Shown here: positions 6,001 to 63,226 of the stretch, one piece after another
Layout: every line of letters begins with the position of its first letter
How positions within the stretch are numbered: the first letter of the stretch is position 1
NCBI GenBank assembly: GCA_000165425.1
Contig: CT868074.1
Location: 496,001-560,000 of the forward strand
Reading direction: 5' to 3'
Length of the DNA stretch: 64,000 bases
DNA from: Paramecium tetraurelia
Taxonomy: Eukaryota
Notes under the pieces: generated by a model
The model's database searches: none
What the model saw: the letters and a program-made list of their open reading frames with translations, nothing else
Told to the model about the DNA's origin: nothing
Made by a program: the position numbers and the translations under genes

Positions 6001-7979
6001 AAGTTTGTATTTATTTTTCTCTTTCCTCCTACTCCTCTATTTATTTGATGAACAAAAAAAATAAACACAAAGTACAATTCATCAAAATTGAATTAACGAC
6101 TGAACTTTCCTAATAAAAGAATCCAAGTTTTTAACAGACTGTTGTTGGTAAATCATCTACACCTTTGTATTAACTTGAAGGACAAAATTAATAGAAATTA
6201 TCAGGTCTATCCAATCCTGTTATATTGCTGTAATAGAAAGTAAAAAAATTGATCAATAATGAAGGAATATTACAAAATATTGTAGCCAGGCGAATTATTT
6301 TAAAGTTTAATGTAAACCCTGTTAAAATAAGCCAACATACTAATAAAATTGAAAAATATGTCTATTGGAGTATGACTATACTTAAGGACAATATTTGTAA
6401 AATAATCAAAGAAATCAATGGTTTATCTATGGTAGTTTTAATAGTTTCCAATTATTCATACCATGCTTTCTCAATTTTATGAAAATAGGTTGCAGAAGAT
6501 TCATATTGATTTTGAAAGATTCTGTCGATTTTAGGACTTTCTTTTGATTCACGCTGCTCCTACTCTTCAATGTCTTCATCTGAGATCTCCTTACTCTCTT
6601 CAGAATCAATATCTTTAGAATCTTCTTCCTATTAATTCAAGTTCCCAGTTTTTCTTCTCCCTTGAGGGGAATCATTGAAATCTACGGAGATGTTACCCAT
6701 CTAAATTTTAATGAATTCTTAAAACTATTTAAAGTCTTTGTATTATTAGGAGATCTCTGTTACAGTGTAATTAAATTGATTTTTGATATTCTGTGTTTTT
6801 ATCTTCTCACTTACTAAGCAGAGCATATTGATTACAATAATAGAGAAGATAATGAATAGGATGGCTTGGGATTCATAATTTGAAAAGTAGCCAAATAATT
6901 AGAACCCAGTAAATTATAAAGTGAAGGATGCTGCTCTGCTATTTTAAAGGATAACCTTCTATATTGGTGTGCTGATGAAATACATAACAACTAATATTAC
7001 CATAATTACTATCTTCAAAATTATAAAATATTGTTTATCTACTAAATGATTGTTATACATTCTCAACAGCAACACCAATTAAAACCCCCACATGATAAGA
7101 CCTATTAGAGATTTGGTACAGCAAGTTAGGATGATCAAACTAAGTAACATAATCAGCTAAATATTAATTGCCAATTGCTTACAATAAAAAATTTGGTCAA
7201 TATAGGACTATCTGATAATTCATAGAATTCTTATTTCAATTCGACATTTCTGAAAATTAATATAACTATAGCCAAAGCTAACATTATGCAGTTTGGTGCA
7301 AATGCTAAGCCCTGTTCAGATGAAGACACAGTGATTTTACCATTTATTAGTGTGAAATAGACTTCCAGTCCTCTGAAGTTTTCAATTGACATCATTGCAT
7401 AACCCTTACTATATTAATTTAAATTACTCCATTTTTAGCTATAGGGTATAAGGTGAGCTTAACAACCAAAGAGATTGCGGAAACTATAACAAAAACATAC
7501 CAAAAGAACTTCTTTACATCATTAAGAACCAACCAATATTGAGTTATAAAGTTATTTTCAGATTGCTCCTAGTTCTAGTTTGTATTATGAAACTATTCTT
7601 ATTATGCAGCGAATTCTGCTAATGGATAAAGTCTCCCATCTTTAACCTAAACTCCTTTATAGCTACTAATATAGGAGTAATTTAAAATTAAGAGTAAACA
7701 GATCAAATAAATGGTTGAGTAATAAGACTGTATTAATATGCAATAAATTAATAATCCAAGCATTCCTATGATGTCTAAAGCTTAAATAATCTTCCTGTAT
7801 TTTTTTGGTTTAATAGCAAATTCAGAAATTGGTTTTTCAGGTGAATCCTCTTTTTCATTTTTTGAATTTGAATCTCTTTGTAAATCAGAATTATCACTTT
7901 CTGATGGCAATTGTGAGTTGCTTTTTCCAATTGGAGTGGGGATTTCAATTTCTCCCTTTGACGATCCTGAATTATACAT
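1..7979 (-). CDS. PIEZO: Piezo-family mechanosensitive ion channel (3' end runs off the window)
   Basis: With TAA/TAG=Gln, ORF-track fragments starting at 7979, 5516, 3641, 2219 and 1616 share one frame. Many TM segments. The C-terminal part reads RPGIDLY...MMVERYI...LRYGY...IPFLYDLKVLMDWTCLYTSLDIYQWFTLEDI...FGPLILFSALNP, matching the Piezo anchor/outer-helix motifs. Confidence 0.92.
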
Positions 7980-8025: not shown

Positions 8026-10028
8026 TCATGGTTTTTTCTAAGAAGTCTATAGCCATTCTTCTTCTGACATTTTAAATATGTATAAATTGTTGGCTTCTCT
8101 ATCTAGGAAAGTATAAACTAAAGTAATTTACATATGATTTCAGGTTCTGGCAATTCATTTGGATTTGTCACATTGAACTCATCCTTGAATAACATAGGAT
8201 CGTAATGTTAAATCTTTGAAATTAAGTCTGGTCGTTCTATTTTTCATATAAATATCGTTAATACATAGTTATAGGAATGCTGTTTATAGATAACCCCAAA
8301 TATGTTTAGCTTATGGATTAATCATAAGGGCACTTAGATACAATCTTGCTGCATCCAAATATTCTCCCTTGTAAGAATAGGCAAATGCTAAATTGACCCA
8401 AACTCTCACGTAATTAGGTCTAAGATCCAATGCTCTATGATAGCAAAACATGGCTTAATCTGCTTCACCAAGATGTGCAAGGGTGGCTCCTAATTTGTTC
8501 CAAATCTAGTAATTTTTGGGTTCAATTTGAAGTGCCTTCTTAAAGATCTCAACTGATTTTTAATAGTTTCTTTCAATGAAATAAAGTACAGCTAATCCAT
8601 TCAACAATTCAACATCATTAGGTCCTTGTTAATGAGCTGCTTCAAATACTTAAATCATTCTTGCATTCATGCATTTTATTTAATCTAAAGTATAATCATA
8701 GATATTTGTGTTGTCTGGCACAATACTATCATCAACAGGCACCTTGTAATTTGGATTTCTAATTAACCATTATTTTAAAAAGGACATTGCTTTGACTTCA
8801 TCCAAAATGTTTGTGCAAGAGATACCTAAGGCACTCAAGGTATCTAATTCATTTGGGTTTTATTTCATAGCATTCAAGAAGGCAGCCACAGCTCTTTGAT
8901 CTTGATCATTTTCTTGATGTAATCTACCCAAAATTCTCCAAGCGTTGGAATCTGTTGGATTCTTTTAAATGTGAGCTTCCAAAGCAAGGATTGCTTCTGT
9001 ATTCTAACCTTGATGCACTAAATTCAAAGCTGCTTATAAAGGAAAATCCATGGCCAAATATTTGTTATTTTCTTAAAATCTATAAGTATCATTAGAATCT
9101 TTATAGAGTTCAAATTCCTATAAATCTGATGCTGCTTACCAGGCTTCAGAGAACATTTTATCAAAGTCTGTTCCTGTATCCATTTCCTTAAGTATTTATT
9201 AATAGGTATCTTCAAGCTTCTTTTAAAATTGATCTTCATTTTATAATTCACTTTCATATTTTTCTAGTTTTTCATCCCACATTTTAGAGAACTTCTCTTC
9301 AACTTCTGTTAGATCTGATTACTTTTATTCAACATTCTTTGTGGCCTAATCCCATCCTTCTTCCAATGTTTGGATTCTCTCCAAAGCTGACTATTCTACT
9401 TTATCACCCTTCTAAGTGAGCAATTCATTGCCCACTAATTTTAGATTTCCATTCTAGATATCCTTCATAAATCTCAAAAATTTAGACTATTGAAATCTAG
9501 GATCAGGATCCTTTTCTAGAGCTTAGACTAGGTCATCAGCAAACCTTTATGATTTTTCACTCTAAGCCTAGACATCCTCTGCATTTTCATATGCTTCCTA
9601 AAATAAATATTCTTGAGCCATTTGATCTGCTTGATATTAGATTTCTGCTTGTTGCCATTGAAAATCCATCATCATTTACTACTGTATCATTGCTTACTCA
9701 TATTTCCTTTGCTCTTCCACAAACATCTTTTCCATCATAAATCTTTATTCCACATTTGCTTAATCATATTGTTTGGCCATGGTATCCCATTATTGATTCA
9801 TGCTTTCAAGCAATCTTTAACGCTCTTGTAATTTCTATTGGACCATAGGATCTTATTGAACATTTATCTATTATTATATTTATCTAAGATTCTTATATTA
9901 ACGATATACTATTGTTATGTTTGGCCAAACAGCATTCTATCCATAAATTGCTTGAATGGATTTTGACTCATCTATTAAGTTCCATCAGCAGTGCAAGCAC
10001 CACCTGTATAAATATTTCTGAAGGCCAT
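8026..10028 (-). CDS. PEX5: Peroxisomal targeting signal 1 receptor (TPR protein)
   Basis: N-terminus MAFRNIYTGGAC...NPFKQFM has the conserved Cys. C-terminal TPRs (WNKLGATLAH, YHRALDLRPNYVRVWVNLAFAY, YLSALMINP). Tiny introns; TGA at 8026-8028. Confidence 0.92.
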
Positions 10029-17361: not shown

Positions 17362-18726
17362 ATGAATATTTAATAATTGATTGACTTGTTTACTCAGAGA
17401 TATAATGGACTTCAGCCACAGTTTTTAGTTAAAGCCCCTGGAAGAGTTAATGTAATCTAATCATAAATGGTAGTTAATTGGTGAGCACATCGATTATATG
17501 GGGTATGGAGTATTACCATTCGCTTTAGAACAATCTTGTTTTATGCTATTTGCTATAGATGGAAACGACATACAGATTTAGCATGCTGATGACCAATAGT
17601 TTAAACAATTCAATCTTTCTGTGAATCCCAAGGAACAATACAATGAAATCTAAAATTATGTTAAATATGTACTTGCAGGATATAGGGCAGGGATTTAATA
17701 TGGTAATGCAAATTAAGGAATCAAGATGTTGATTAGTGGTAACGTCCCATTTTCTTCAGGATTATCTTCATCATCATCTTTGGTAGTGGCATCCTCTTTA
17801 ATGAGTTTATAAGTTAGCGGAAAAACCTAATAAGATATTGATAGACAATAGTTTGTTGATTAAATTATTAAATTTGAAAGAGAAGCAGGCACAGCTTGTG
17901 GAGGGATGGATTAGACCATATCAGTTTTTGGACAAGAAGGCTCTGCGTTATATATTGAATTTGACCCATTAAGATTAACTTAAGTCAACTTACCAAAAGG
18001 GTATTCATTCATCATTGCAAATTCATTGACAGAATCAACTAAGCTAGAAACACTTGGAAAACATTACAATAAACGAGTAGTTGAATGTAGAATCGGAATC
18101 AAATTAATAGAATTAACTTTAAATCTTGGGACGAATTTCAAAACGATGAAATAATTATAGGATTATTTACAATTATCACTTGAATCCATGGAAGAGCTTT
18201 GTAAATTTATTCCAAAAGGAGAAATAGATCTAGAATAATTGGAATATTTGCATTTGCCTGTGCTTTTAGCTGATATCCCTTACTTTGAATTAGTATTAAA
18301 TTAGAATAAAAGTGTAAATCCTTACAATAGATTGGTTCATGTGGTAAAGGAAGCTTAAAGAGTTATTAAATTCAAAAATATATGTGACTCTAAAATATCA
18401 GATGATGCTAAGGCAATATTATTAGGTTAGCTGATGAATCAAAGTTAAAAATCTTGCAAAGATTTATATGAGTGTTCGTCTGAAAACATTGATACATTAA
18501 CAAGTTTGTGTATTAAGAATGGAGCTTTGGGAAGTAGACTAACTGGAGCAGGATGGGGAGGCTGCACAGTTAGTTTAGTCAAAGAGGCAGACGCTAAGAA
18601 TTTCAAAAACAAAGTATATTTTACTCTTAATACTAGATAATTGAGTTCTTCTATAATCACATTGAAAACTAAGATCATATTTTTTCAACCTAACCATCTT
18701 AAGGTGCTTCCATCATAAAACTATGA
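17362..18726 (+). CDS. GALK: Galactokinase / N-acetylgalactosamine kinase (GHMP family)
   Basis: [14 protein letters not shown] signature (split by a 22-nt intron), [27 protein letters not shown]. Confidence 0.93.
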
Positions 18727-19180
18727 TTGTAATTATTCAAAGGATTTATATTATTTGGTTTTAATTTTGAATTTGAAACTTAAAATGCAAGTAATTTTTC
18801 TTTTCTTCTCTAAATATTTATGAAATTAGATCTACTCTAATTGTTTATATTTCTTATTACTAAATTTTATATATTTCAGTATTTATTAGCTACGATTATC
18901 ATTCCTATTATCGAATTCATTTATCAATAAACTTTAAATATCTCAAAACTAAATTTTAGTAGATCATGATTAGAAAAATAAAGTAATTTAAATATATTAA
19001 AAATTTTCAAAATAATTAAGATAGATTTTATTTAATTATACTTTTTAATAACTACTTACTATTTAAATTGTTAATTGCAGAAATTACTTTTGGCCAAGCA
19101 CTTTACTTTAGTAAACATTATAATAAATATTATTGTAGATCCAATTTTATTGATATTATATTATATCAATTATATTCGAT

Positions 19181-28361: not shown

Positions 28362-29907
28362 TCAAGGAAATAATCTACTTGAATCTCTTGGAAACAAACT
28401 TGCGTTTCTAATATTTTTTAAATCAAAGTATAAATATAGGAATCTTTCTAAACCAAATGCACATCCTCCATGAGGATAGGATCCATACCTTTAGATATAG
28501 AATAATACTTCACCTGAAGGAATTAATGTAGTCTTTTAATAGTTGAGCATCTTATCCTATTCCTTTTAGTTAATTATTTAAATGTTCTGGATCATGAATT
28601 CTTTAATGGCCTGATGCTATTTCTTCTCCTCTCAAAAAGAATTTGTAAGATAAATTAAAATTAGGATCCACTTTACAAGGCATAATACAGGAATTTTAAT
28701 TTTCTCTTGGTAATCTATTCAGAATGAAAAAGTCAGTTCCATATTTCTCTTTTACTATCTTTCCTAATTACTTTTAATTTGTAATGCAAAAATAATATTA
28801 AGGACTTTAAACAATACCAACTTCTTGAAGTAATTTTATTGCATCAAAATATGTTAATTTGATAATAGGGTAACAAATCTTAATAGGTTAAAACTAAAAC
28901 TACTTTGCGATGATTTAAATTTCTTAATCAAACTTTTTCTCAATTCCCTTCAATATAAATAAACATAATTCTTCTGTCAGATCTAGCAATTCAGTATAAT
29001 TTTCTTTGATAACCATTTCTAAATCCATACATATAAATTCACACAATTCTCTATGAGTGTTACCATGAAGTGCCCGAAATGCTGGGGATACTTCAAAAAC
29101 TCTTTCAAAATCAGCCATCAGACACATTTATTTATATTTACAAGATGATTAGGATAAAAATGCTTGATAATTAAAGTACTATAATTTAAATTTGCAATAG
29201 TTATTTTTTGTATTAAATCCTAATAGTTTTGGAGTATGAATTTCAATAAACCCCTTTTCTATTAAAAATTATCTAAAAAGCAAAGCTATTCCTGATTTTA
29301 CTCGAAAAATGGCCTATTTTGCAGGAGTTCTTAAGTCAAGAACTCTATTATTTAATCTTTAATTTTGAGATATTTGATAATCTTGAATTTAGATTAACTG
29401 CTGTTGATCTTCATTCTACTTTTACTATTATAAATTAGGATAATAATCAATAATTTTTCTTGAAGCTTCTTCAATTTGAAATGGCAATTTAGTAATTGAT
29501 CTACTTATCACTCTAATAGTTTATATATGTAATTCAACTTATTAAGTACAATCCTTGATCTTAAAATTTGTTTATAAAACAACAGCTTCTATGTCAACTA
29601 CAGATTCCAAATTGATTCCTCCTGTGTATTTAATCATTTGCGAACCTATTTGTTCTCCTTTTGTTAAAACAGCTTAGATTGTATACCAATTTTCTCTGAG
29701 AACTAAAAAAGCAATTTTTCCTTTCATTCTAGAATTGTGAATCCTAGCTCTGAGTAAGATAGTTTTTCCAATTGTTGATTCATTGATTTGACTTACTTTC
29801 ATCCATTATCGATTTGTTTTCTAAGACTATTATATTAATGAAACATCCCCATATCTATCTCCGTCATTAATGTCTTACTATTTCTCATTCAATTACTAAT
29901 TAATCAT
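28362..29907 (-). CDS. Aspartyl-tRNA synthetase-like protein (eukaryotic cytosolic type, divergent active site)
   Basis: OB anticodon domain (RARIHNSRMKGKIAFLVLRE), RLNNRVLDLRT, EIHTPK, YKQMCLMADFERVFEV, RGEEIASG.QRIHDP, FGLER, FPRD. One 25-nt intron near 28489-28513. Confidence 0.9.
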
Positions 29908-30535
29908 TTAATTATTAGATCTCTTGAAATCTTTTAAAATAATTCTTTTATATAGTATAAGGACTTATTAAAATTATTGATTTATAAATTGTTGATACTA
30001 AATTAATTGTAATAAAATAGCAACCAATCCATTTCCATATTGAATGTCCTCCTAACATTATATAAGTAATAAAATTATTAAATAAATCCAATATCAAGAA
30101 CATTTGATAGTAGTAAATAATAATTTAATATTATGAAATTCGTATACAAAAAGCAAATCGTAAAACCAAATAGATAAGCTGTTTAAATTGCTTTGGAAAA
30201 TTTGCATTTATTGAATTATTCTAACTTTTACAAAATCACCCCAATCCACATTCATTTCCTAAATCAATAATTGACTTGAATTGACCTATATTCTAATGTG
30301 AGAACAATAATAGCTATGAAACGCAGCATAAAATTATTTCCAAATAAAAGTTATGAATAAGTTAAGAATCAGTTTAAAATTCACTATATTCATTATTATT
30401 ATTATTAGAGTTCCAGTTTTTTTAAAGATAATTAAGTTTCATAACCTTTAATCAAACACTTAATTTTTCTTTGTTATATCATTGATAGATTGGATATTTC
30501 ATTTTATAATTATTAATATAATTTATTTATAGTAA

Positions 30536-39842: not shown

Positions 39843-40781
39843 ATGGGTGCATGTTCAGGAGTATGCTAATAACAGGCAAAAACTATAGTAAATGAATCAG
39901 CAATAGTTACAGAAACAATCATATAGGCATTATAGGAGGATACTACAATAAGCAGACCAATATAGAGGGAAGAGAGATACTTAAAAATGGAAACAGGTGC
40001 AATATATGAAGGAGATCTAGTTAAAGGAATTCGAAGTGGTAGGGGAAGATAAGTATGGCCAGATGGTATTAATATGACAATTTAGGTTCTTATTATGAGG
40101 GGGATTTTGTGAATGATATGGCTGATGGAAAGGGAATATTGGTAAATGCTGAAGGAAGTGTTTATGACGGGGAATGGTTGGAAGATAAAGCAAGCGGTTT
40201 TGGGAAGTACCATAGCCATGATGGGTTATACTATGAAGGACAATGGTTGGAGGACAAATAGCATGGTATTGGAAAGGAGATCAATTAAAGAAGTTCTTAG
40301 ATAAATTAAATTGTTAGATGAATGCTATGAGGGCGAGTTCTTTAGAGGAGCTAAATAGGGGTTTGGGAAGCTGAGTTTAAATGATGAAGAATTTTATGAG
40401 GGCGAATTTTAAAGTGGGATGATGCATGGTAAAGGTAAGAAATTGAAATAGTAATATAGAATAGGAACTTATACTTGGAGGAGCAAAAAATCTTATACGG
40501 GAGAATGGAAAGAGGGACGGATGGATGGATTTGGGATAATGAAATGGGAGGATGGAAGATATTATGAAGGGGAATTTTAGAAGGGGAAATAACATGGAGA
40601 GGGTACATTTGTTTGGAAGGGGAAGAAGTATGTAGGAGCATGGATAAATGGATATTAGGAGGGGGAAGGAACTTATTATAATGAGTAAGGGGAGAGTAGA
40701 GTTGGTATTTGGAAGAATGGGAAGAGATAAGAATGGTTGGATTATTTAAGTAGCAGCAATAGTATTGAATAAACATTTTGA
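39843..40781 (+). CDS. MORN-repeat protein with predicted N-terminal acylation (MGACSGVC)
   Basis: Repeated YEGE/DW..G..HG.G units. Gly2 plus Cys4 and Cys8. Tiny introns. Confidence 0.9.
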
Positions 40782-40804
40782 ATTTATATTTATTATTAAA
40801 TATT

Positions 40805-43800
40805 ATGAGTTCGGCTCCATCCACAAATAATGTGATTATCACTAAAGTGGAGATTGCTAGATTTACGATTTATTTAGTGTCCTTAATGGTTTCAGTGCTT
40901 ATGCAGATGCGAATGGAAGATTAAGGTATAATGAATACATCAGTTTAAAATTCGATGTTTTCAGGAATTTAAAATGTGTTTAAGTTTAATAATCAGACTC
41001 GATTCTCAATGTTGAATTGGGTGGACAAATAGTTGTATCATGGTTATTCATTGAATAACAATTCTACGGAGATGTATAGCAGGTTGATTCCGGTGAGTTT
41101 CCTTGAAATTCAAACTAAATATGCCAAGATTGATAGTTTGGTGAATGTTTGGGATAAGGATTTGACTGAAGACAAAGCAAACTAAGGATTTCAATAGCAA
41201 TATATTTATCCGTTCATCCAGCGATTTCCGCCGTACCCTGTATTCAAGAATATCAGCTTCATCGATGATGTTAGTGGGATAACTCTGGATTCATTGAAAC
41301 TAATTGATACTGGGTTTTTGACATCGAATACTCACTCATTGAAGGCTCAAGCATCATATTACAGTCCCAATTTGTAGATGATTGTAAACATTATTCTTAT
41401 GACTAGTGTGTAGTCAGAATCAATATGGAATTCAGTGCTGCTGGCTAATCGTATCAATTCATTCAATATGACTCATTTAGATTGAGTTTTTATTTAAACA
41501 AAACTGATTATATCAGAATGGCTTTTGAGATTTTGTTCTCAATCATTTATATCAACTATTTATATATGGAGGGTTACAAGATATATTTCAAGGTTTAGTT
41601 GGCATCAAAAGAAGATGATTTAAAAGTATAAGCATAAAAAAAGAAAGAATAACGTTTGAAGTCAAAGAAGGAAGCTAAAAAAAGAGGGGGTGTTGTTTAG
41701 GGAGAAGAAGGAGAAGTTAAGCATCTTTCTGTTCTAGGGGATAAAGTAGAATCCAAAAGTCGAGAGAAAATGGAGAAGGCTCAAAGAAAAACAAAGATTA
41801 TCATCAACGTTGTTATTCAACATATTTCTGATATCTGGAGTGCTATAGATGTGTTGATCTTAGTTATTCTTGGAATTGCTGCTTCAGAGTACATCAAGGC
41901 CATTTCATCTTAGCCATATTCTGACTCTTTGAATAATCTATTGGAGAACACCTCTACTTATTAATCTGTTTTTGAACCTGTTTATAAAGATATGCTGACT
42001 GGGATCTAAGTTTCTTATACTTTGAATGATGAATTTGCAGAACAGGCTGATATTTTAAGATTCTACAGAAGGTTTTGCGCAGTCGCACTCTTAATAATGT
42101 GGATCAAGTTGTTGAAGTATTTCATTAACATCTTTTAACGATTAATAAGTTACTTGGAGATCATCTTGAATGTTATTGAGTACATGATATTTTATTTAGT
42201 ATTGTTGGGAGCAATTTTGATATCATTTTCATTGTTCTTTTACTTTCAATACGGAAGTTAAATTTTCATTACCTCGACAATTGGAAGATCATTGTCTTAC
42301 ATCTTAGGATTTATGATAGCTCAAAATGATCAATTTAATGAATTGTTCAAGTATGATGAAGTCATCACATTCATAATGACCATCCTTTACTATGTTATTG
42401 TCATTATCATATTGTGTAATATGTTTTTCGTCTTTGTTAAATAAGAATATAATGAATATTAGATGAAGCTTGAGAAACAATCCTAAAAAAATAACAATTC
42501 CAAAAAACATGATGAGATGGTTAAATATATACATCCCTACTGGTATTTCTATAACATTGCTGAATATTTTGTCATGAGATTTTGGTTCACCTTAAAATTA
42601 TAACCCTCGAAATTTGATGATTATAATGAAAACAAAGAATTGCAATATGTAATTAACGAGAGAGAATTCAAAGAAAATCCACAAACCATCGACTTTAACG
42701 TCGATTTTGCTAACTTAATCAACCAATCAGTTGATGATGATGATAAGAATCAGAAATTCTTGATAGAGGAAGAAAAGGAAAGAATTCTAAGTAAATAGAA
42801 GATGGAACTTATTAAACTGATTTGGAAAACAGTGCTATTATTATTGATATTGTCCTTGAATTTCATTTTACTCTAAGAATTTTATAGTCCTGCTGATGCT
42901 TATTTGCAAAGTGATTCCATCTCAAGGAAAATTAGATATGATAGGTCCAATGCATAAAAACAATTCAAAGATTTAAATACTATTCAAGATATGACGGATT
43001 GGCTAATTTATGGATTCCCAGATCTTTTTGAAGACAATATATTTGGATAGAATGAGTTGGCAATCCTAAAAAATCAAAACCCAACAATAAATTTTAACTC
43101 CTCTTCATCTGATACTATCCTGTAATATCAACTTCAAGAATATGCTTTTGATAGTCTAATTAGAACTAGTTCATTGAATACTTTCAATATAGTTGTCAAT
43201 GATGTAATTAGAGTAACTATCAGAAGATCTTTGATGGTAAATAATACATTGGAAGAATTCTCTACCTTTGCTGCTCAAACTATGCTCCTATTTTTAAATT
43301 CTCCAACTGACAACATAGATTCAGAAAATGAGAATTATGAGAGTTTTTACGATGCCGACACCAATTTCACTATTGATTACGATGAATCCAATGGATTTGA
43401 AGGGGAAGGAGGTTTAGTTATGTTGCTGGAACCAAAATAATTGAGTCCTGTAATAGATTCGTTGTAGAAAGTCAAATTAATTGATAGCATCAGTTCCATA
43501 GCTATTTAATTTGTAACATTCAATCCTATTAATGCAAGAGGATTAGCACACATTAAATTGTCATTTACAATAAATCAATGTGGTGCTCTTTCCTTCAAAT
43601 TAATCGATGTGCAAGGTATTAAAAAGAACTCCTTATAATCGGTAAGTGAAATCAGTATTTTGATCTTGTCAGTCTCACTTATTATTGCTCTTTGCTATTA
43701 TTTATATGTGACCATAAAGACTATGTTACACAAGAATTTTTCTTATGACAGATGGTATAGCACCTACATATTACTATCATTAAATAGATCATAATTATAC

Positions 43801-45540
43801 ATGAGAGAAAGACATATGCCTGAGTTTATAAGAAAATCGCTTTTTTTAATGGATATCTCATAGTTGCTCAATTTATTGTTTTTGACTCTTCTAGGAGCTC
43901 AGATTACATTGATATTGTATTACTTCTTTTAGGTGAATACTTTGATTTAAGGATCTCAGATATTCAGTACTTCAATCAATGATTTATTGCCTTCAACATT
44001 GTTTTCTGTGAATTAGAATGTGGATAAGTATGTTTTCTTTAGTTAGGTCTAGAAAATTGGAGATAATAGTAAGTTAATTGGGGCATTTGGCTCATGTGCA
44101 ATTTTGGTGTTGTGTTTAGAAATTTTATATTTACTTTCACACAATAAAGATTTTTAAACCTTGACAAACTCAATAAAGTACACCTTATCTCATCTACCAT
44201 TCATTTTAATTATCCTATTGGGTATAATCGTGGCTTTTTCATCGATGGCTCACTTAGTTTTGGGCACTGATCTCATTTAATATTCTACATTCTTTGGAAC
44301 TATTGTTAAAATGCTTGATTTCATTTCGAAAATAGATGATATATCATTCTTTCGTCTCGATGATAGAACCTTAGAATTCTATCTCATGATAATACCTTAC
44401 ACCATCACCGTTAGATTTATCATCATGAATATGTTCTTTGCTATCACATTAAGAGGTTATTTGCTAAGCAAAGAAAAATATGCTGAAGAATAACAAAATC
44501 AGAAATCGCATCCTTTGTCATTAACTTCTCAAGAGTTCGTTATGCTATCTATTCAAATGTTTACATTTAAGGAAAAACTTATTAAGGTTGGATCTGATTA
44601 ATATTTAATGCAAATTATTAAGTAATTCCAGCCAATCAAGGTTTATACTTCAATCAAGGACAACATAAGAAATCAGACAAACTTAACAGCCATGAAGGCT
44701 TGGGCTGAAGAATGTGCAAAAGAGATTAAGGATGAGAAGGAAATAAGGAAACCACTTGATGTTGCCTGTCATGAATTGTTGTAGGCTTACATCGATCAAA
44801 ATAACAAGGGGGAATTTGATATCCTACAAAGATTGAATACCGATCCAAAGAGAAAATTAATTGAATTCTCTTTGAAATTGACATACATAAATTATTTTAG
44901 ATTTGCTATTGATTAATTAGATAAATTTACAGTCTTTTTTACAAAGAAAAGAGAACAAATCAGATCTATCTTGTTTTCTGACAGCAAAGGAGAAGATTAC
45001 AAAAAGATGGTCTACATTTGTTCTTTGGAAGCTCAACTGGAGGAGAATATTTAAAGCATGACCTTTATAAAATAAGAACTCTTAGCCTTGGGATTTGATA
45101 TTGGTGAGGCAGGTGAAATTGACAGCAAAGAGAATGTCATCAAAGTCAAACAATAAAAATAACAAACTTTAAAAGCCTCATTTTAAAATCCCATGTCTGA
45201 TAGGATATTCTAGTTGACCAAATTAAAACCAGATAACACAAAAGATCTGAAAAACTCCCCTGAACCATCAGATAATGAACCTGATCAAGATAACTAATTT
45301 GCTGAATCACGTATATAACAAACAATTAAGCCTTCCACGTTTAAATAAGCACAAACTATTGAAGTAAAATAGGATGATCCAAGAATAAAAGAGAACAAGG
45401 ATCAATAATAAGGTGAAACTACAGAAAAGTCAACAGATGAAAAACCCAAATCTGATCAGCCAGTATAGCCAGAATAGAAAGTTGGAAAGGGGATCGTTAA
45501 AAACATGTTTTAAGTGGGAGATAAGAAATCAAAAAAATGA
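40805..45540 (+). CDS. Polycystin-2 (PKD2/TRPP)-like cation channel with two tandem channel modules
   Basis: Module 1: S1, TOP-like (YYSPNLQMICVVRINMEFSAAG), IWSAID, LIMWIKLLKYF, S5-pore-S6 ending LCNMFFVFV. Module 2: S1, FKDLNTIQDMTDWL, QFVTFNPINA, S5 AFSSMAHLVLG, YSTF, S6 IIMNMFFAIT. Confidence 0.8.
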
Positions 45541-45675
45541 CTAATTAGAATATACAATTATTTATTCATATCTAAATTTTATACAGACTGCAATAAAAAT
45601 TCTAATTTTGATATTAAAATACACTAGGTATATAATAATAAATTATTAATTATTAACGAGTTTTTATTTCTTCAA

Positions 45676-47236
45676 ATGCTACGAAAAGACAGTTCTTACA
45701 GAGAAATATCCTTAACGGACTCCATAGAGCAGAAATCATTTTTAAACTTAACCAGAAAACCATCCAATGCTGATTTTAAAGGAAAGACACCCTTAGGTGT
45801 CTAAAACAAAGATAATAAGGAGAATTCATCTGCAAGAATTCATTCTGATACACCTCCATAAGACTTTTTTTTTAAAAGAGAAGTCATCAAATCGGAGAAA
45901 TAGTTACCCAATGAGAAAACAGCAATATATAATGATGCATCAAGATTTTAATCATCCAAAACGTATATGGAATGCAGGATGGAATAAGTAGAACAGCGCA
46001 GAAAAACCTAAAGTCCATAGTTATTGTCCATGACTCCTGTTCAGAATAAGTAAATCATTCAAGAAAGTTATAATCATCTCCAATAACCATAATAATAATA
46101 ATAACAAACAGTTTAAAGTTCGATCAATTTAACTAGAAAGGCTTCAGTTGTTCCTTCAAGAGGGTTATCTACCTTATCTTCCCCAACTCCTAAAGAAGGA
46201 GATTTTAATATCTATAAACAGCAGAGCAGCATACCAGCATCATATTTGGATTCAGTTGTTACTAATAGAAATAACAAAAATTATACTGTTCCGGAACAGT
46301 AATAATAATAATAACCACAATAACAATAATAATAATAATATTTATAATAATAATAGTAACAATAACAACAATAATAAGAATAGAAAAATCCCTCTCTAAA
46401 ATTATACTACATTACTTCGCTAATTAAGGCTTTTAAAATGAAAGGTCCAAATTCAGCAAAAGAGCATCTCATTCATAATATGCAGGTAAAAATTGATCAC
46501 ACAATTTAAGGGAATCATAATCGCTAAGAAGCTAAAAGTACCCCCAGTTAAGAAAGCCATAACATTGCCAGTGACTGACAAGAAAACTCTGCTGTTTGAC
46601 TTGGACGAAACATTAGTGCATTGTAACTCAAATAGTTTTATCCCTGGAGATGTTTTACTCAATATAAATCACGAAGGAGAGAAGATGGAAGTATAGAAAC
46701 AATATAAAAATATAGGCTTCTTTGAATATTAGACCTTATACCTCTCATTTACTTTAGTCGTTAAGTAGAAATTTCGAATTGATTGTATTTACTGCTTCTC
46801 AATCACATTATGCTAATGCGGTGATAGATTATTTAGATCCATAGAAAAAGTGGATAAGTCACAGATTCTATAGAGAACACTGCATACCTACAGATGATGG
46901 ACATTTCATTAAGGATCTTCGTATTTTTACAACAAGAAAACTAAGTGATATGTTGTTAATTGACAATGCTCCTCATTCTTATCTTTATTAAATTTAAAAT
47001 GGGGTGCCAATCATACCTTACATCGACAATAAGTCAGATGAAGTAAATATCAGTTTTTAATCAATTAGGAATTGAAATCGTTATTGTAATATTTGATGTA
47101 ATTTAAGAATGTTAAGGATGTGAGAGAATTGAATATGTAGCAAATGAAATTGCATCGTTTTTCAGAATATGATGACCCTCAAGAACTATTAAAATGTGAA
47201 TTTAATGAATACTAATTATAATCCGTTTTATTATGA
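45676..47236 (+). CDS. CTD small phosphatase-like (FCP1/SCP, NIF family) HAD phosphatase with Q-rich N-terminus
   Basis: KKTLLFDLDETLVHC, IRPY, VFTAS, FYREHC, IKDLR, IDN, QNGVPI. Several tiny introns. Confidence 0.92.
46295..46380 (+). repeat. TAA/CAA trinucleotide tract encoding poly-Gln inside the CTD phosphatase gene
   Basis: In-frame runs of taa/caa/tag. The ORF track misreads them as poly-Asn in another frame. Confidence 0.8.
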
Positions 47237-55833: not shown

Positions 55834-58800
55834 ATGAAGACCACCTTTTTTCATAAAATTAAAAGATTCTTTAGAGGGTATTATTGATCTATAAATTCAT
55901 TAGTTCTCCAACTGAATGGAAAAATCTACCAAAAAGAGTAATACGTCCAGGATTGGCTGATCAACTTATGCCAAATAATAGAGTAATCACTAGCAAATAT
56001 ACTATTTTCACTTTCCTTCCTCTAAACTTGGTGGAATAATTTAGCAAGATGGCTAATATTTATTTCTTGATCGTTGGAATATTATAGATGGTTTTAGATC
56101 TCTCTATCATTAGATTCCTGCAATTACAGTGTCTGATGGGTTACCGACTGAATATACTCCCCTAGTGGTCATAGTAATAGCAACAGCAATCAAAGATCTT
56201 TTGGAAGATTTACAAAGACACAAGGCGGACAGAAAGGAAAACAATACAATAATATCTGGCAAAAAAAGCTAAGATATAAGAGTTGGAGAGTTTATCAGGA
56301 TTAATCCTAATGAGTAGATCCCAGCAGATATTTTATTATTGAATTAAGAATGTTTTGTTGAAACCTCCTAATTGGATGGGGAAACAACTCTTAAACCTAA
56401 GTAGCCAATAACTGAGAATATTGAATATATTGAAGCAGCAGGGCCAAACCCATATTTATATTAGTTTAGTGGTTCCATAAATGGGTAGAAGCCATTAAAC
56501 GAACACAATCTATTACTTAGGGGTTCTTGTTTAAAGAGTCTAGATCCAATTGATGGGATTGTAATCTACACTGGGCATCAGACAAAGATTCTGCTGAATT
56601 CACACAACCCAAGAGGTAAGTCAACAAAGATGTAATAGGTTATGAATAGATTGATTTTATACTTATTTATAGGCTAATGGCTGTTGTGCATTTTCTGTGC
56701 TTCTTATTTTACAGTAGCTCTGAGCATCAAGAAACAAGATTTAGATTATCTTTATTTAAATCAACCTGAAGTTACTTCTTTACTTTACTTTAGTAGTTTT
56801 TTCTAGAGTGTTGGAAATTGGTTTTTGCTTTTTGTAAACTTTGTTCCAATAAGTTTGATGTTGACTTTGGAGATGATCAGATTGTTTTAGGCATATTTTA
56901 TAATAAAAGATCCAGAGATGGGTCCAAATACAAAGGTTTAATCTTCCAATTTAAATGATGATCTCGGACAAATCAATCATATTTTCTCTGATAAAACTGG
57001 TACTTTAACAGCCAATTAGATGACCTTAAGATAATATATATTTAAAAACTAAAATATTGATTTGCAAAGAGAGGATCCTCAATTAATTTTTAATGAGGAG
57101 AACATTATTTATTTACTTCAATTCATACTTTGTAATGATATCAAAGTAAAAAATGGGAATGTACTATCCTCATCAAGTGATGAAATGGCTTTAATCAACT
57201 ATTTCTTAAATCAAGGACTCTAAATATCAGAAGACGGTAAAAATTACCTCATCAATATATAAAATAAAGTGTATTATAGAATTGAAAAGGTCTATCTAAT
57301 ACCTTTTAGTAGCGATAGAAAGCGAATGTCAATCGTGTTAAGATTTTAAGAAAAACTCTACATATTTTGCAAAGGAGCAGACAGTATTATCTTGTAAAGA
57401 ATAAAATCAACTGCAAATCATTAAGATACTATCGTCTCTTTTAGTTAAGCCTATGCTAATCAGGGTTTGAGAGTGCTGTTATTCTCTTTCAAAGAATTAG
57501 AAGAATAGGAATTTGCTGAATGGCTAGAGATATACGAAAAATCTTTAATATAATAGGATGAACGGATGCTGGAATAGTTGCAAAATCAACTTGAAACCAA
57601 TCTTGTTCTTTCAGGGGCAAGTGGTGTTGAGGACATTCTAAGTGAGCATGTTTAAGAGACTATAATCGAACTCTAATATGCTAATATCTAAATATGGATG
57701 ATTACTGGAGACTCTTTTGCTACAGCTAAGGGAGTAGCCAAGAAAATTGGATTGATGAATTCAAGATCGAAATCTATATTAGTTGAACATTAAACAATTA
57801 GTTAAATTGAGAGTTTAGTATTAGAGTCAGAGAAAAATGTTTGCAATTAATATGAAATTAGTTTAGTGATTTTGGGTAAAATCCTAATCGATTATTCGAT
57901 GGAAGATAAGTTTAGATTAATAAAGTTAGCAAAGGAATGTTAATGCGTAATTTTTAGTCGTGTCTCCCCTAAATAGAAGAGAGAAGTAGTAGAATTATTT
58001 TAAAAATGTTTTCCAAAACTTTGCACATTAGCAATAGGAGATGGTGCCAATGATGTTAACATGATAACTGAAGCGAATGTGGGAATAGGAGTTTGTGGTG
58101 TTGAAGGGTTATAGGCTGCAAGAGCATCAGATTATGCGATTCCTCTATTTAAATGTTTATAATAGTTGCTTCTATTTCATGGTAGAGAATGTTATAGAAG
58201 AAATACTTAAGTTGTGACCTACAACTTTTACAAAAATGTATTGTACTTGATACCCTAATTTTGGTTTGGCTTATATAGTCAATTCTCAGCATAATCGATC
58301 TATGATTTTTATGTGTTTCAATGCTACAATTTCATGTTTACCTCATTGCCTATTATCGTCTATGGAGTATTCGATATTAAATTCAATGACACTATGCCTA
58401 ATAAGTATTAATTTGGACAACAAGGGGGGTATTTGAATTTTAAAGTGTTCATCCTATCGTTATTAGAAGGAGTCTATCAAAGTTTGATAGTCTTCTTCTT
58501 TTGTTTCTATTTCTTAAACACATCATCTTCGAATGGATTCGAATATGGATTGTTGGTTCAAGGATAAATAATATTTTTCATTTGCATTTTTGTGGCCAAT
58601 ACCAAAATTCTACTTCTTTCACATTAAATTCAAGTTTTGTAGATTGTCATACAAACACTGTCATATGTATCATATATATGTACGATTTTGATATTCAATA
58701 ATGTGGTCGAATATCAACTCTATGGAGTGCTTTAAGTGATTTTAACATAAGGAATCACTTATATAATAGTTCCACTTGTTTCCTACTTGGCCATTAGTGT

Positions 58801-58897
58801 TATAATATATCAAAAGAAATACTAGTTATTTAAGACCTTACAAAAAGTCTAGGTGTCATAATCAACAGCAATAAATGCCTCGTTGATAACTTTATGA
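55834..58897 (+). CDS. P4-type ATPase (phospholipid flippase)
   Basis: [63 protein letters not shown]. Confidence 0.95.
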
Positions 58898-59419: not shown

Positions 59420-61458
59420 TCAACGCTTATATTTTTTACCATCAAATGCTCCTTGGATTTAAGAAAAGGTGGCCTGTTTATCCCATTCCAATAAGATGTA
59501 GTTTTAGTTGCCTACATTCAAGCAATTCAAGATCACATAATTGTGATAAATCAATGCATAATTGTCCACGATATCCAACTTTTATCCTGCATCCTTCTTC
59601 TCTGGTTACAGCATCTTGCTGAATTCTTGCTCCTTCACTTCTTTAGGTGGCACTCCTCTTTGATGAAGCCTTATGAAATGATTACTATGATAATTTAATA
59701 GCAACTCTTACTTAGTAAATAATAACATTCTTTTGCTATCTTTGTTGTCAGTGATTGCTCCTCTTATTGGATCCTTTAGGAGAGAAACATTGAGGGGAGA
59801 ATGCATCATATGCTCCTTGGAATAAGAATTCATTTGCCATAATTATTCTTTGAAATCGTAATTGTAAATTGCAAAAATGTGAGAAGCATAAGTAACTAAT
59901 ATTTTCATGCATTTGCCATTGATTATCAATATATTAGTGACATAATTTTGATTAGATCTACAGTCAATTTACTCAACGGTGTTGTTAATGACATTCACAG
60001 AAACGAACTTTTACAAATAAGGGTAGGTGATAATTAATGTTTTTTTATTGACAAATTTCATTAATTTTGGTTATCCATGAATTAATTAAGCTATAAATTG
60101 AGATTGTCCATTGATTTTATGTTTGAATAGCTTATCATCTTTGTCAATACTATAAAATGTATTCTAAGAGTGATCAAACTCCATACATTTGAAATGTGGA
60201 TAAACTTGATATTTTTTAAATTGCTTATCCACTTCATTCATGATAACAGTCTAGTCACTCTATCCATAACACAATAGGTTTTTAGTCAATTTAATAAAAT
60301 GAGCTGGTTTTTAGAGTTTGAATTCGCACCAATAAATAGGATCAGATTCAATATCATAGGATAACAAATCTATAGAATCATATTTGTTAATTGCAATATA
60401 CTGATGATTACATATGAACTGCTCACTTCTGGGAATGGTGAAAATATGTGTAAACTAATTCTATTAAAGTAGTTAACCATTTAACATCCAATTTATAATA
60501 ACAAATATCAGTATTCAAACCTCCAGATATAAGGATGTTATTCTTAATAATTTCAAAAGCATAAACATCATGGGATTGCCCTCTTATTTGTTAGGTTATT
60601 TGGTATTGTGATCCATTGTATGATAAACAAACTATTTTACTATCTACTCCACTCACATAAACATTATTTAGATTTGGATATAAAGTAAGAATATCTGACA
60701 TGTGTGTTTGTATTTGTTGAATTTCCGTATTAAATTAAGTCTCATAAATAATGATACTGCCATTGGATGATCCAATGAATAGATTATTATTGCAAATACA
60801 TAATTTCCAAGGAATAATAACATTGGCCTTGGCAATTTTGGAACTGCTTATATTGAGTTGCCATGTTTACTGTTGTAGTAATGTCTTTTAAGTTAATTAT
60901 CTGATAGATCCATTAGAGAAAGATGCATAAACATATTCTTTATTGATGGCAATTGATAAACATTGGCAATCTAATTGTTGTGATTGTTGAATTTGATATA
61001 CTTTATTGTTTTAATAATCGAATTTTCTGATTGAACCATCACTACAAGCGCATAAAAAGTATGTGTCAATGGTGGGTATGGATTCATAGATATTAATATT
61101 ATCTGGCAATTAAAAATTATTTAGAGGTTTATAATCGTGAATATTAAACAATGAAATTTGACCACTTAAATATGCACAAATGAAATCTAGATATATTATT
61201 TACATAAGTACGTTCTTCATCAATCCAAAAGAGTGAACGAATTTAACTATTGATGGAACAACAAATTGAAATTTGAGTGTATGTTGGATAAGAATAGATT
61301 TCAATCACTCCATTTTCTTTACCAACCAGCAATAATTGCTAAATAGGATTATTTGAGAGAGCTGTGATGGTGGATGGTAAATATGGAATTTGTTTATGAT
61401 GCAAAGAAACATGAGCCTTTTCATATTACTTTTTAATCTGTGGTTGCTCTATTTACAT
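59420..61458 (-). CDS. UTP4: U3 snoRNA-associated WD40 protein UTP4/cirhin
   Basis: LHHKQIPYLPSTITALS...LLVGKENGVIEIY, ACSDGSIR, GSSNGS, QTHMSDILTL, SGVDSKIV, RGQSHDV. Confidence 0.75.
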
Positions 61459-61485
61459 TATTTTAATTTATATAAAATATATATG

Positions 61486-62595
61486 TCATGGTATTAATGA
61501 CTCATTTAGCAGTTATTATTCTTCCGTTTTAGACTCCTCCTCTTAATTGTCCGTAGCACTTTCTTCAACGAGCATTTGATAAGGGGGCAATGCTGGAGGA
61601 TGTAAAATATAGCTGATTTCCATGTATTAGAGTACAGTGTCACCACCTAAATAGAATTACAATGCTTACGTGTTCCATATGCACAATGATAAGTCGATGA
61701 TTTCTTATCAACATATTCACCTCCGACTTTGACGTAGAAATTACCAGCTCTACTATGCACATCGAATCCTGTGATTCCCTAGGCCAATACATTCTAATGA
61801 GATTCGAAAATAAAAGTAGAAGGAACTTCTCTCTCAAATCTTTGTACTCTTAATTTCATCCTATTTTCATTATCCAAAAATTAATTAAACGCATTGTCTG
61901 AACTACCCAAAGTTCCCATTATAGTAGAGTAATCTGAAGAAATAAAGTAAGCTATTCTAAGAGTATTAATATGACATCTGTCTCTTGTTAAGAATCTTAC
62001 AGCAGTGGCACTTCCTGTTGGTTTACCCAACTATATTTAAATGGTTGTTGTCAATGAGTCGTAGACTTCAATTTCAGCACCTACAATGAATGCCACTACT
62101 CTTGGTGTTGGATACTTCAAGTAATATTAAACCATGAAATCTTGGAATCGAGTTCCAAAACCTTGTCTCAATCTAATCAAATCTTCAAATTAATAGTTAA
62201 CGTATTGCACTTCTGCTTCTGAATCCACGAATGCTACCCATCTTATTCTTAACACTGGAATGATTGCTGGACCATTAATTAAATAGTTTATATAGAACCC
62301 TTTTACAGTCACATCAGAAACAAAAGTCTGATAATTGATATTCCTATTTTTATTCCACTCTATTTCTTCGTGCATCAATAAAACTTATGGGCGTCTATTC
62401 AAATATTTATTATTCTGACCTGCTGAATTATCTTGGAAATTGCACTCGAGTGAACATTTGCAATGGAAAGACAGGTTCAACGAATTTGTTTTGTCTATTG
62501 ATGGTTCTATCAATCCCAGATTGCCATTCTGTATAACCATCATAGCCTAACTATCCCAAAACGCTAACACATAAAATTGCTGCAATTATAAACAT
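61486..62595 (-). CDS. Secreted protein with tandem H-type lectin-like domains
   Basis: Signal peptide; VQFPRQF..PQVLL...VSDVTVKGF....IRWVAF, with two further similar units (PRVVAFIVG; PLFGIRGFD...GDT...MEISYI). Confidence 0.65.
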
Positions 62596-62614
62596 TAATA
62601 TTAAAAAAACGATA

Positions 62615-63226
62615 TCAATTAGATAATAATTCTGCAATCAACTCCACCAAGGCCATTGTGTTTTACATAAAGATATCAAAAATTTCTCGTTTTCTTTACT
62701 ACAACTAATAAAATTCTTCCACCCAGTCTTCGCTTTTAATACATTTAATTAATAACTAAAGTTCTTCCAAATTCATCAATTTCTCCTTGACTTCTTCAGC
62801 ATCCACTTCTACTTAATTTTAATCATAATTGGCTCTTCTTTTCCCGTAGATAAGATGAGTCATCACCTGTTGTAGATCGTACTTATTATGAATCATGGCT
62901 TAAACGACATCCTCTCTTTTATAGCCCTATTCAATCAATTCCAAGACCTTCTTTTTATAGTCTTCAGCATTATCTAATATCATCTCTTATAATTCAATTA
63001 GTTTCGACTTTTTTCGTTCTTTGATTGTTTAGATTATCAGATCTCCCTCTTGTACATCTTAATTAATCAACTATAGTTTTGGTTAAAGAATTCTGTTTTT
63101 ATGAATGTAATTATATTCCTCCTTTGTGTTGCTGATGATGTTATTGAGATCTTCGACGGTGATTTATTGAGGAACTGTAACTTTGAGGTTTTCCCTCGGA
63201 GAAATTTTAACAATAATTTAAATCAT
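62615..63226 (-). CDS. UBL-UBA shuttle protein (RAD23-like, 203 aa)
   Basis: N-terminal ubiquitin-like MIQIIVK...TVEDL...YIHKNRIL...VQEGDLI; UBA-like VLELIEQGYKREDVVQAM...YDLQQVMTHLIYG. Intronless. Confidence 0.7.

Follow-up and report, generated by a model that had tools for sequence, protein, structure and literature searches.

Does the transient receptor potential (TRP) branch of ion channels contain proteins in which two complete channel modules are fused into one chain and, if so, how would such a chain build a pore? The textbook TRP channel is a tetramer whose subunits each have a single six-transmembrane (6-TM) unit, and fused designs with two or four such units are known for the two-pore channels (TPC), Nav and Cav. 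In the literature that we searched, no fused TRP design turned up. The question is raised by a gene of Paramecium tetraurelia on contig CT868074.1, which lies in a stretch of 64,000 nucleotides (positions 496,001-560,000 of the contig) that we call the window and whose own numbering is used below. In this report, we found that positions 40805-45540 of the window hold one expressed gene for a membrane protein of 1570 amino acids. This protein is, with near certainty, a single chain of two full polycystin-2-type modules (TRPP, group II TRP) in tandem, as had been proposed from the sequence alone.

Kinship and anatomy of the two modules

With a GC content of 0.23-0.34, the window is AT-rich and looks like ciliate DNA. 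Translated with NCBI table 6, its plus strand holds a frame of 238 amino acids (40769-41485) and one of 1410 amino acids (41308-45540), and the two are joined codon to codon (193 to 194) by a 23-nt phase 0 intron of the form GTA...TAG (41384-41406). An intron of this length had been suspected near 41385; the same 23 nt are absent from an assembled transcript contig described below, which confirms it. The channel gene starts with the ATG at 40805 and ends with the TGA stop at 45538-45540. Exon 1 (40805-41383) encodes residues 1-193, which comprise the start codon, the first transmembrane helix (S1) and most of a first large loop resembling the TOP domain of polycystins, and the N-termini of three orthologues (P0001-P0003) match that of its product. 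Exon 2 (41407-45540) encodes residues 194-1570 and the stop.

Two successive units had been read from this frame, at 40805-42460 and 42800-44490, and the hydropathy peaks fit both. When an alignment of the query with 41 relatives was cut at query residues 1-560 and 645-1235, hhalign matched module 1 to module 2 with a probability of 100 and an E value of 1.4e-54 over 473 columns that span S1, the loop and the remaining helices up to S6. The S3-S6 parts of the query's own two modules are 25% identical over 218 residues (BLASTP, E 7e-4). Among known structures, module 1 matched human polycystin-2 (PC2; 8hk7) by phmmer (E 8.6e-5) in an alignment that takes in the last strand of TOP, S2 and S4-S6. 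Module 2 by itself found no channel in a phmmer search of the Protein Data Bank; channel matches for it came from profiles only.

Those profiles point to polycystins for both units. A profile of the 34-sequence family described below matched PKD2L1 in two stretches (E 8.8e-80), PC2 (E 3e-72, with profile positions 21-626 covering all of module 1 and its TOP domain) and PKD1L3 (E 5e-40), and there was no TPC among its best 60 matches. A second profile, made from five sequences of module 2 only, matched PC2 with an E value of 1.4e-41; its positions 157-269 cover S2 and the C-terminal half of TOP (PC2 342-454), and its positions 341-518 align to PC2 479-654. This profile also reached TRPML1 (E 3e-9) and TPC3 (6v1q, E 2.7e-7), the TPC3 match being weaker than those to the PC2, PKD1L3, best Cav and TRPML1 chains. 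The six-helix S1-S6 unit with its pore loop can be aligned from module to module and to PC2 and PKD2L1. Given the profile matches of both units to these two proteins, both units are best classed as TRPP-type, and their large loops, which are predicted to occupy the place of the TOP domain in PC2 and PKD2L1, as TOP-like at the level of profiles. The claim of two complete TRPP modules in one chain thus stands on the hhalign comparison and on the profile matches. In Pfam, PKD_channel matched the exon 2 protein with 26.9 bits and module 2 alone with 29.8 bits (E 5e-7) against a cutoff of 22.4 bits, and Ion_trans gave no match to the query at E values up to 1. Over the 34 family members, PKD_channel was found in 33, Ion_trans in 22 and Polycystin_dom in 18.

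The helices of module 1 are marked by hydropathy peaks at residues 15-33, 333-351, 418-436, 453-471 and 512-530. S1 (residues 13-35; 40841-40909) aligns with the first helix of module 2 (S1'). It is followed by the S1-S2 loop (residues 36-228; 40910-41511), which is TOP-like by profile comparison with PC2 and PKD2L1, and whose last strand, CVVRINMEF, corresponds to CVVRLLVEF in PC2. S2 (residues 229-252) falls under the hydropathy threshold and was placed by alignment to PC2; together with the Lys/Glu-rich S2-S3 insert (residues 253-328) and S3 (residues 329-352), it occupies 41512-41883. S4 (residues 416-438) and S5 (residues 450-472) lie at 42073-42243 by hydropathy and PC2 alignment, and the pore loop (residues 473-508) and S6 (residues 509-540) lie at 42244-42447 by alignment.

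Module 2 has six peaks, at residues 664-682, 942-960, 1005-1034, 1083-1101, 1123-1141 and 1188-1206. Its S1' (residues 661-684), second TOP-like loop (residues 685-940) and S2' (residues 941-962) occupy 42808-43713, as judged by hhalign against module 1 and by the module 2 profile against PC2. Hydropathy and alignment place S3' (residues 1005-1035), S4' (residues 1081-1103) and S5' (residues 1120-1142) at 43840-44253, and the PKD_channel match and alignment place the pore loop (residues 1143-1181) and S6' (residues 1182-1212) at 44254-44463. The expectation of about 12 helices therefore held in part: 11 appear as hydropathy peaks (five and six), but the S2 of module 1 stays below threshold and is supplied by the PC2 alignment. 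The two S6 strings singled out in the original prediction, LCNMFFVFV and IIMNMFFAIT, are present at residues 529-537 and 1198-1207. N-x-S/T sequons cluster in both TOP-like loops, which should be extracytosolic, with six in loop 1 (193 residues) and three in loop 2 (256 residues).

Between the modules lies a linker of 120 residues (541-660; 42448-42807), presumably cytosolic, with an aromatic stretch, YIHPYWYFYNIAEYFVMRFWF. A linker is found across the two-module family, but its sequence is poorly conserved. In the query, no hydropathy peak of 1.5 or more occurs between S6 and S1'. None was seen in the linkers of 43 relatives of at least 900 residues, except in P0091, where two close peaks (564 and 587) look like a split S6. 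Because the linker carries no extra peak, both modules are expected to have the same orientation in the membrane; a hidden thirteenth helix, which would flip module 2, was considered and rejected for want of a peak there. The C-terminal tail (residues 1213-1570; 44464-45537), delimited by the family alignment, is common to the family up to about residue 1425, with W1292, E1346, I1397 and E1401 conserved, and its last ~140 residues are Paramecium-specific and of low complexity. At E values up to 10, Pfam placed no family in the linker or the tail, where no EF-hand was found; near the linker there were only weak, sub-threshold matches to DivIC and FAM195 (E at least 0.3).

The functional roles of the PC2 residues compared here are background knowledge, including that of L-G-D as the selectivity filter; their numbers and the L-G-D motif were read from the alignments to PC2 and PKD2L1. 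Module 1 is PC2-like at the charged positions of S3 and S4, with D341 at the column of PC2 D511 and K427 and K430 at those of K572 and K575. At the same columns module 2 has N1015, E1098 and Y1101, the PC2-like charges being lost. Other hallmarks are common to both modules. The S5 glycine is kept in each, and family-wide in 32 of 34 sequences in each half. Both S6 helices read N-M-F-F, from N531 and N1201, with a tyrosine ten residues after the asparagine; this asparagine is present in 27 of the 34 first modules and in all 34 second modules. In two dinoflagellate proteins (P0120 of Symbiodinium and P0093 of Biecheleria), the first-module S6 has Q-Y-L in place of the N-M-F found elsewhere and the second module still has N-M-F, so that one half may have changed its role in that lineage.

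The pore loops had been said to differ strongly, and the filter regions bear this out: I-A498-Q-N500-D501 in module 1 and S-K1168-I-D1170-D1171 in module 2. The L-G-D filter is absent from both, and the glycine column is occupied by A498 and K1168, in a gapped loop alignment that may be off by one residue. Acidic residues follow beyond this column, in N500-D501 of module 1 and in D1170-D1171 of module 2. Family-wide, 21 of the 34 first modules and 25 of the 34 second modules retain the filter glycine. Among Paramecium orthologues, identity reaches 97-100% in the pore loop and S6 of module 1, 97% in pore loop 2 and 93-96% in S6', compared with 79-90% in the tail and 64-80% in the S2-S3 insert, the lowest value of the channel part. 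By this pattern, neither pore appears to be decaying, and both modules appear to be constrained.

Transcript and neighbouring genes

Exon 2 has 1377 codons, among which ~25 TGA would be expected from the base composition of the window; the probability of finding none is ~1.5e-11. Annotated orthologues exist in Paramecium pentaurelia (1570 residues, 92% identical) and Paramecium sonneborni (1561 and 1568 residues, 86% identical). Each covers 100% of exon 2, and they bear the automatic name of a “Polycystin cation channel PKD1/PKD2 domain” protein. Expression was followed over 40300-45900 in three raw oligo-dT RNA-seq runs with the same species label (X21-X23) and in the contigs of a further run (X3). 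A single X3 contig of 4692 nt spans 40804-45518, that is, from the ATG to 20 nt short of the stop; it leaves out exactly 23 nt at 41384 and has no other gap. Because the intron is missing from it, this contig would derive from spliced RNA. It runs unbroken through 42460-42800, between the modules, where the original prediction had called for a continuous transcript. Further in-frame introns, which we also considered, are ruled out by the same contig. Neighbouring X3 contigs stop at 40724 and start at 45705, and the flanking genes are on separate contigs. Over the whole 5.6 kb the raw runs gave 191, 258 and 153 reads (X21-X23). The first mate lies on the minus strand in nearly all read pairs (in all of those in X21 and X23), depth climbs toward the 3' end, and no site in 40300-45900 was found at which many molecules begin or end.

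The channel gene has close neighbours. A MORN-repeat protein gene (39897-40778, plus strand; MORN E 1.5e-21) ends its frame 24 nt before the channel ATG and is represented by separate RNA contigs. Downstream, a Gln-rich open frame (45541-46578) precedes a NIF/FCP1-like phosphatase (46442-47072, plus strand; PF03031, E 1.5e-38), which is split over two frames and therefore has at least one small intron. At 45828, RNA reads of the downstream gene show A>T in 5 of 11 X21 reads, which may be an allele or strain difference.

Elsewhere in the window, the C-terminal part of a Piezo-type mechanosensitive channel (3-4844, minus strand; Piezo_THU9_anchor E 1.5e-48, Piezo_cap E 1.9e-19) runs off the window start. 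Its gene probably continues in same-strand frames at 4678-7219, within which the link of 5516-7219, a part with no Pfam match, is a guess. The remaining genes recognized include those for a TPR protein (8182-9984, minus strand), a galactokinase-type GHMP kinase (17381-18820, plus strand), a class II (D/K/N) aminoacyl-tRNA synthetase (28513-30093, minus strand), a P4-type phospholipid flippase ATPase (55961-58894, plus strand; PhoLip_ATPase_C E 1.2e-56) and an H-type lectin domain protein (61308-62675, minus strand). No other polycystin module was found within the 64-kb window.

Relatives and history of the two-module chain

A HMMER search with the query against 1.84 billion representatives (50% clustering) matched 124 at E values up to 1e-3, 54 at 1e-10 and 8 at 1e-30, many of them 1200-1650 residues long and aligned over both modules. 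In 34 proteins, the query and 33 representatives, the first unit is best matched by the module 1 model and the second by the module 2 model; these models were built from the same rows as were parsed, so that the parse is partly circular, and the count leaves out three near-identical Paramecium orthologues and extra cluster members. A further 19 rows are single modules or fragments. The two-module members include proteins of Tetrahymena thermophila (XP_001022905.2, 1469 residues, E 1e-94), Symbiodinium (“pkd2”, CAE7308693.1, 1491 residues), Vitrella brassicaformis (CEL92129.1, 1515 residues) and Biecheleria cincta (1573 residues), together with an MMETSP transcript; the remaining members include two sub-clades. 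Homologue searches with the family alignment and with the Vitrella protein turned up no apicomplexan member. To judge from these sequences, the query belongs to an old doubled TRPP family of ciliates, dinoflagellates and chromerids, which is neither confined to Paramecium nor specific to ciliates.

A phylogeny of each module, as had been suggested at the outset, fits one ancient duplication. A first tree, from a quick search under LG+G4 with 87 module rows and 504 columns, grouped the modules by position far more than under shuffled labels. In an approximately unbiased (AU) test on the same 87 rows, one clade of all 34 second modules was not rejected (p 0.615), and the tree so constrained was 4.6 log-likelihood units better. 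A second tree used a site-mixture model on 47 rows, namely 20 two-module proteins and seven canonical single-module rows, with five long-branch proteins and all fragments dropped. Here, all 20 second modules fall on one side of a branch (SH-aLRT 89), the canonical rows form one clade (support 99) with which the first modules lie, and the sub-clades of the two halves mirror each other. Our best reading of the sequences is that one duplication or fusion preceded the split of ciliates and myzozoans, and that the halves would have evolved together since.

This conserved TRPP variant across alveolates appears to be undescribed in the searchable literature; the gene itself is already annotated. Full-text literature (open journals, main texts) yielded no description of a doubled polycystin, and the available portions of PMC9799330, PMC12749960, PMC12849547 and PMC7312350 contain nothing on the subject. 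Kung and colleagues noted 6-S TRP genes in Tetrahymena and Paramecium (PMC2571970). The polycystin genes listed for Paramecium are PKD2a, PKD2b and a “PKD2L” that was not studied (PMC6627415), and Paramecium Pkd2 is treated as a six-helix protein (PMC6627415; PMC8535419). Pkd2-FLAG gave bands of ~110, 100 and 70 kD (Valentine et al. 2019, PMC6627415, section 3.3), sizes that indicate a single-module protein. The gene described here is of the same superfamily and organism group as Pkd2a/b and is a different gene, with a product of 1570 residues as opposed to a single-module one; identity with the published Pkd2a/b was considered and rejected, since the sizes differ.

Pore assembly and likeness to other channels

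In P-loop cation channels, four pore domains are arranged round an axis. The Paramecium chain brings two of the four that are needed, so that a homodimer is the most likely form of the working channel. By analogy, we think it rather probable, though well short of certain, that this homodimer would be a TPC-like pseudo-tetramer. Two chains would pair to give a four-domain pore with two-fold symmetry, as in two-pore channels, and the pore would be lined by two module 1 loops (A498, N500, D501) and two module 2 loops (K1168, D1170, D1171). Each S6 helix would contribute N-M-F, then a phenylalanine at the gate position of PC2. Module 1, with the PC2-like S3 aspartate and S4 Lys-x-x-Lys, might be the sensing or gating half, and module 2 the half without these residues. 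The product would probably act as a non-selective cation channel, passing Ca2+, Mg2+ or monovalent ions, and might sit in an internal store or in the membrane of the cell or cilium.

Several results weigh against this picture or parts of it. Two matches each to PKD_channel and Polycystin_dom had been expected; PKD_channel does fall on both units, but module 1 by itself reaches 18.8 bits (E 1.2e-3) and so stays below the 22.4-bit cutoff, and Polycystin_dom (PF20519) has no match to the query at E values up to 10. Because the filter glycine is replaced by alanine in module 1 and lysine in module 2, both predicted filters depart from the canonical L-G-D and conduction through the pore would not be assured. 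The raw RNA reads are thin, with zero depth in X21 in five bins within the gene, including 42170-42543, and by themselves therefore do not prove that the transcript is continuous; continuity rests on one X3 contig, from a run whose RNA nature is a guess argued for by the missing intron. The first tree has no clean module clades, with four changes for first modules and nine for second modules, and it places myzozoan second modules on the first-module side (support 28) and three first modules beside second modules (support 95). Finally, an apicomplexan polycystin-like protein, TgTRPPL-2, has been reported as probably cleaved (PMC8216714).

The chain might also work in other company. It could fill two pore positions and leave the other two to a single-module Pkd2 (Pkd2a/b), as a variation on the 1:3 complex of PKD1 and PKD2. 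Polycystin heteromers are established knowledge, and module 1 groups with canonical single-module polycystins and not with module 2. However, the doubled family also occurs where single-module partners are not in evidence, and the high conservation of both pores is equally expected from a homodimer; we consider such mixed assembly unlikely. Marginally less likely still is a polyprotein, cut in the linker after synthesis, whose halves assemble as separate subunits, for example 2:2. The poorly conserved linker sequence would suit this, and there are precedents of a kind: Toxoplasma TgTRPPL-2, predicted at 237 kDa with 14 transmembrane domains (TMDs), runs mainly at ~150 kDa and was described as “likely cleaved” (PMC8216714), and cleavage of Chlamydomonas PKD2 is cited in PMC6627415. 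Yet all 34 of the parsed two-module proteins retain the fusion, and separate genes would do if the covalent link were unimportant.

In another explanation only one module conducts; the other would have degenerated into a PKD1-like half that senses or serves as a scaffold, and the protein would be an accessory or receptor subunit and no channel in its own right. The departures from PC2 reported above lend themselves to this: the canonical glycine missing from both query filters, the S3 and S4 charged residues lost in module 2, and the S6 asparagine that is lacking in the dinoflagellate module 1 and less frequent in first than in second modules (27 and 34 of 34). Set against them, the pore loops and S6 helices of both modules are among the best-conserved parts in Paramecium, and both modules keep the S5 glycine, the S6 N-M-F and the later tyrosine, which leaves a single conducting module somewhat less probable than either of the foregoing explanations. 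That two adjoining genes were read through as one can be dismissed almost entirely. Nothing supports it, its sole foothold being the thin raw-read cover at 42170-42543, and it conflicts with the improbably long open frame (~1.5e-11 by chance), with the one spliced contig that extends from the ATG to 20 nt short of the stop, and with the same build in 33 other representatives from distant taxa. A homodimer with a pseudo-tetrameric pore remains the reading that we favor.

Compared with PC2 and PKD2L1 (PF08016, PF20519), each module has S1, a large and putatively TOP-type S1-S2 loop, S2-S6, the “FG” glycine of S5 and N-M-F...Y in S6, and module 1 also has W337...D341 in S3 and K-x-x-K in S4. The Paramecium protein differs in having two modules per chain, in lacking the L-G-D filter, in a tail in which Pfam found no EF-hand, and in the Lys/Glu-rich insert of module 1. 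With TPC1-3 it shares the architecture of two 6-TM units in a chain that would have to pair and whose halves are unlike, only one of them with sensor charges; in TPC, only one voltage sensor is active. It comes, however, from another sequence family, as judged by the module 2 profile (TPC3, E 2.7e-7; PC2, E 1.4e-41), and TPCs have no TOP loop. Since the module tree places the doubling within the TRPP branch, the likeness to TPC would be convergent. The Paramecium channel thus appears, by sequence, to be TPC-like in build and not a member of the TPC family.

The heterotetramers PKD1-PKD2 (1:3) and PKD1L3-PKD2L1 offer a second comparison, as asymmetric polycystin pores made from unlike 6-TM units. 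Their units are separate chains, and PKD1 has 11 TM helices and a large ectodomain, whereas here two PKD2-like units are fused. Authors working on Paramecium report no PKD1 homologue there (PMC6627415). A further likeness, by description, is to TgTRPPL-2 of Toxoplasma and other apicomplexan TrpP homologues, which are likewise alveolate and polycystin-like. The latter are listed with 12-19 predicted TMDs and, in the part of the paper available, no comment on repeats (Prole and Taylor 2011, PMC3194816, Table 2). TgTRPPL-2 has 2191 residues and 14 TMDs, gives a cation conductance of ~55 pS and matters for growth (PMC8216714); in the accessible text of that paper, the words “tetramer” and “dimer” are absent, and neither two repeats nor a stoichiometry is mentioned (PMC8216714).

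These comparisons raise a broader possibility, which we put forward tentatively and with slightly more doubt than confidence. Alveolates in general, meaning ciliates, dinoflagellates, chromerids and probably apicomplexan parasites, would possess a covalent PKD2-PKD2' tandem, formed once before these lineages parted, as the TRP counterpart of TPC. It would act as a two-fold symmetric dimer whose halves divide the work, with PC2-like sensing assigned to module 1 and with the S6 asparagine invariant in module 2. TgTRPPL-2 currents would, on this view, be those of a pseudo-tetramer of this kind. If apicomplexan relatives do share this build, it bears on the assembly of a channel under study as a potential drug target.

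A conserved and expressed TRPP tandem would be a natural concatemer with a fixed order of subunits, and as such would be suited to the study of ion selection and gating in asymmetric, PKD1/PKD2-like pores. RNAi, tagging and electrophysiology are possible in both Paramecium and Tetrahymena. If the reading given here is true, the 2 x 6-TM design was invented independently within the TRP branch, and the family would show how the step from one domain to two came about a second time in channel evolution.

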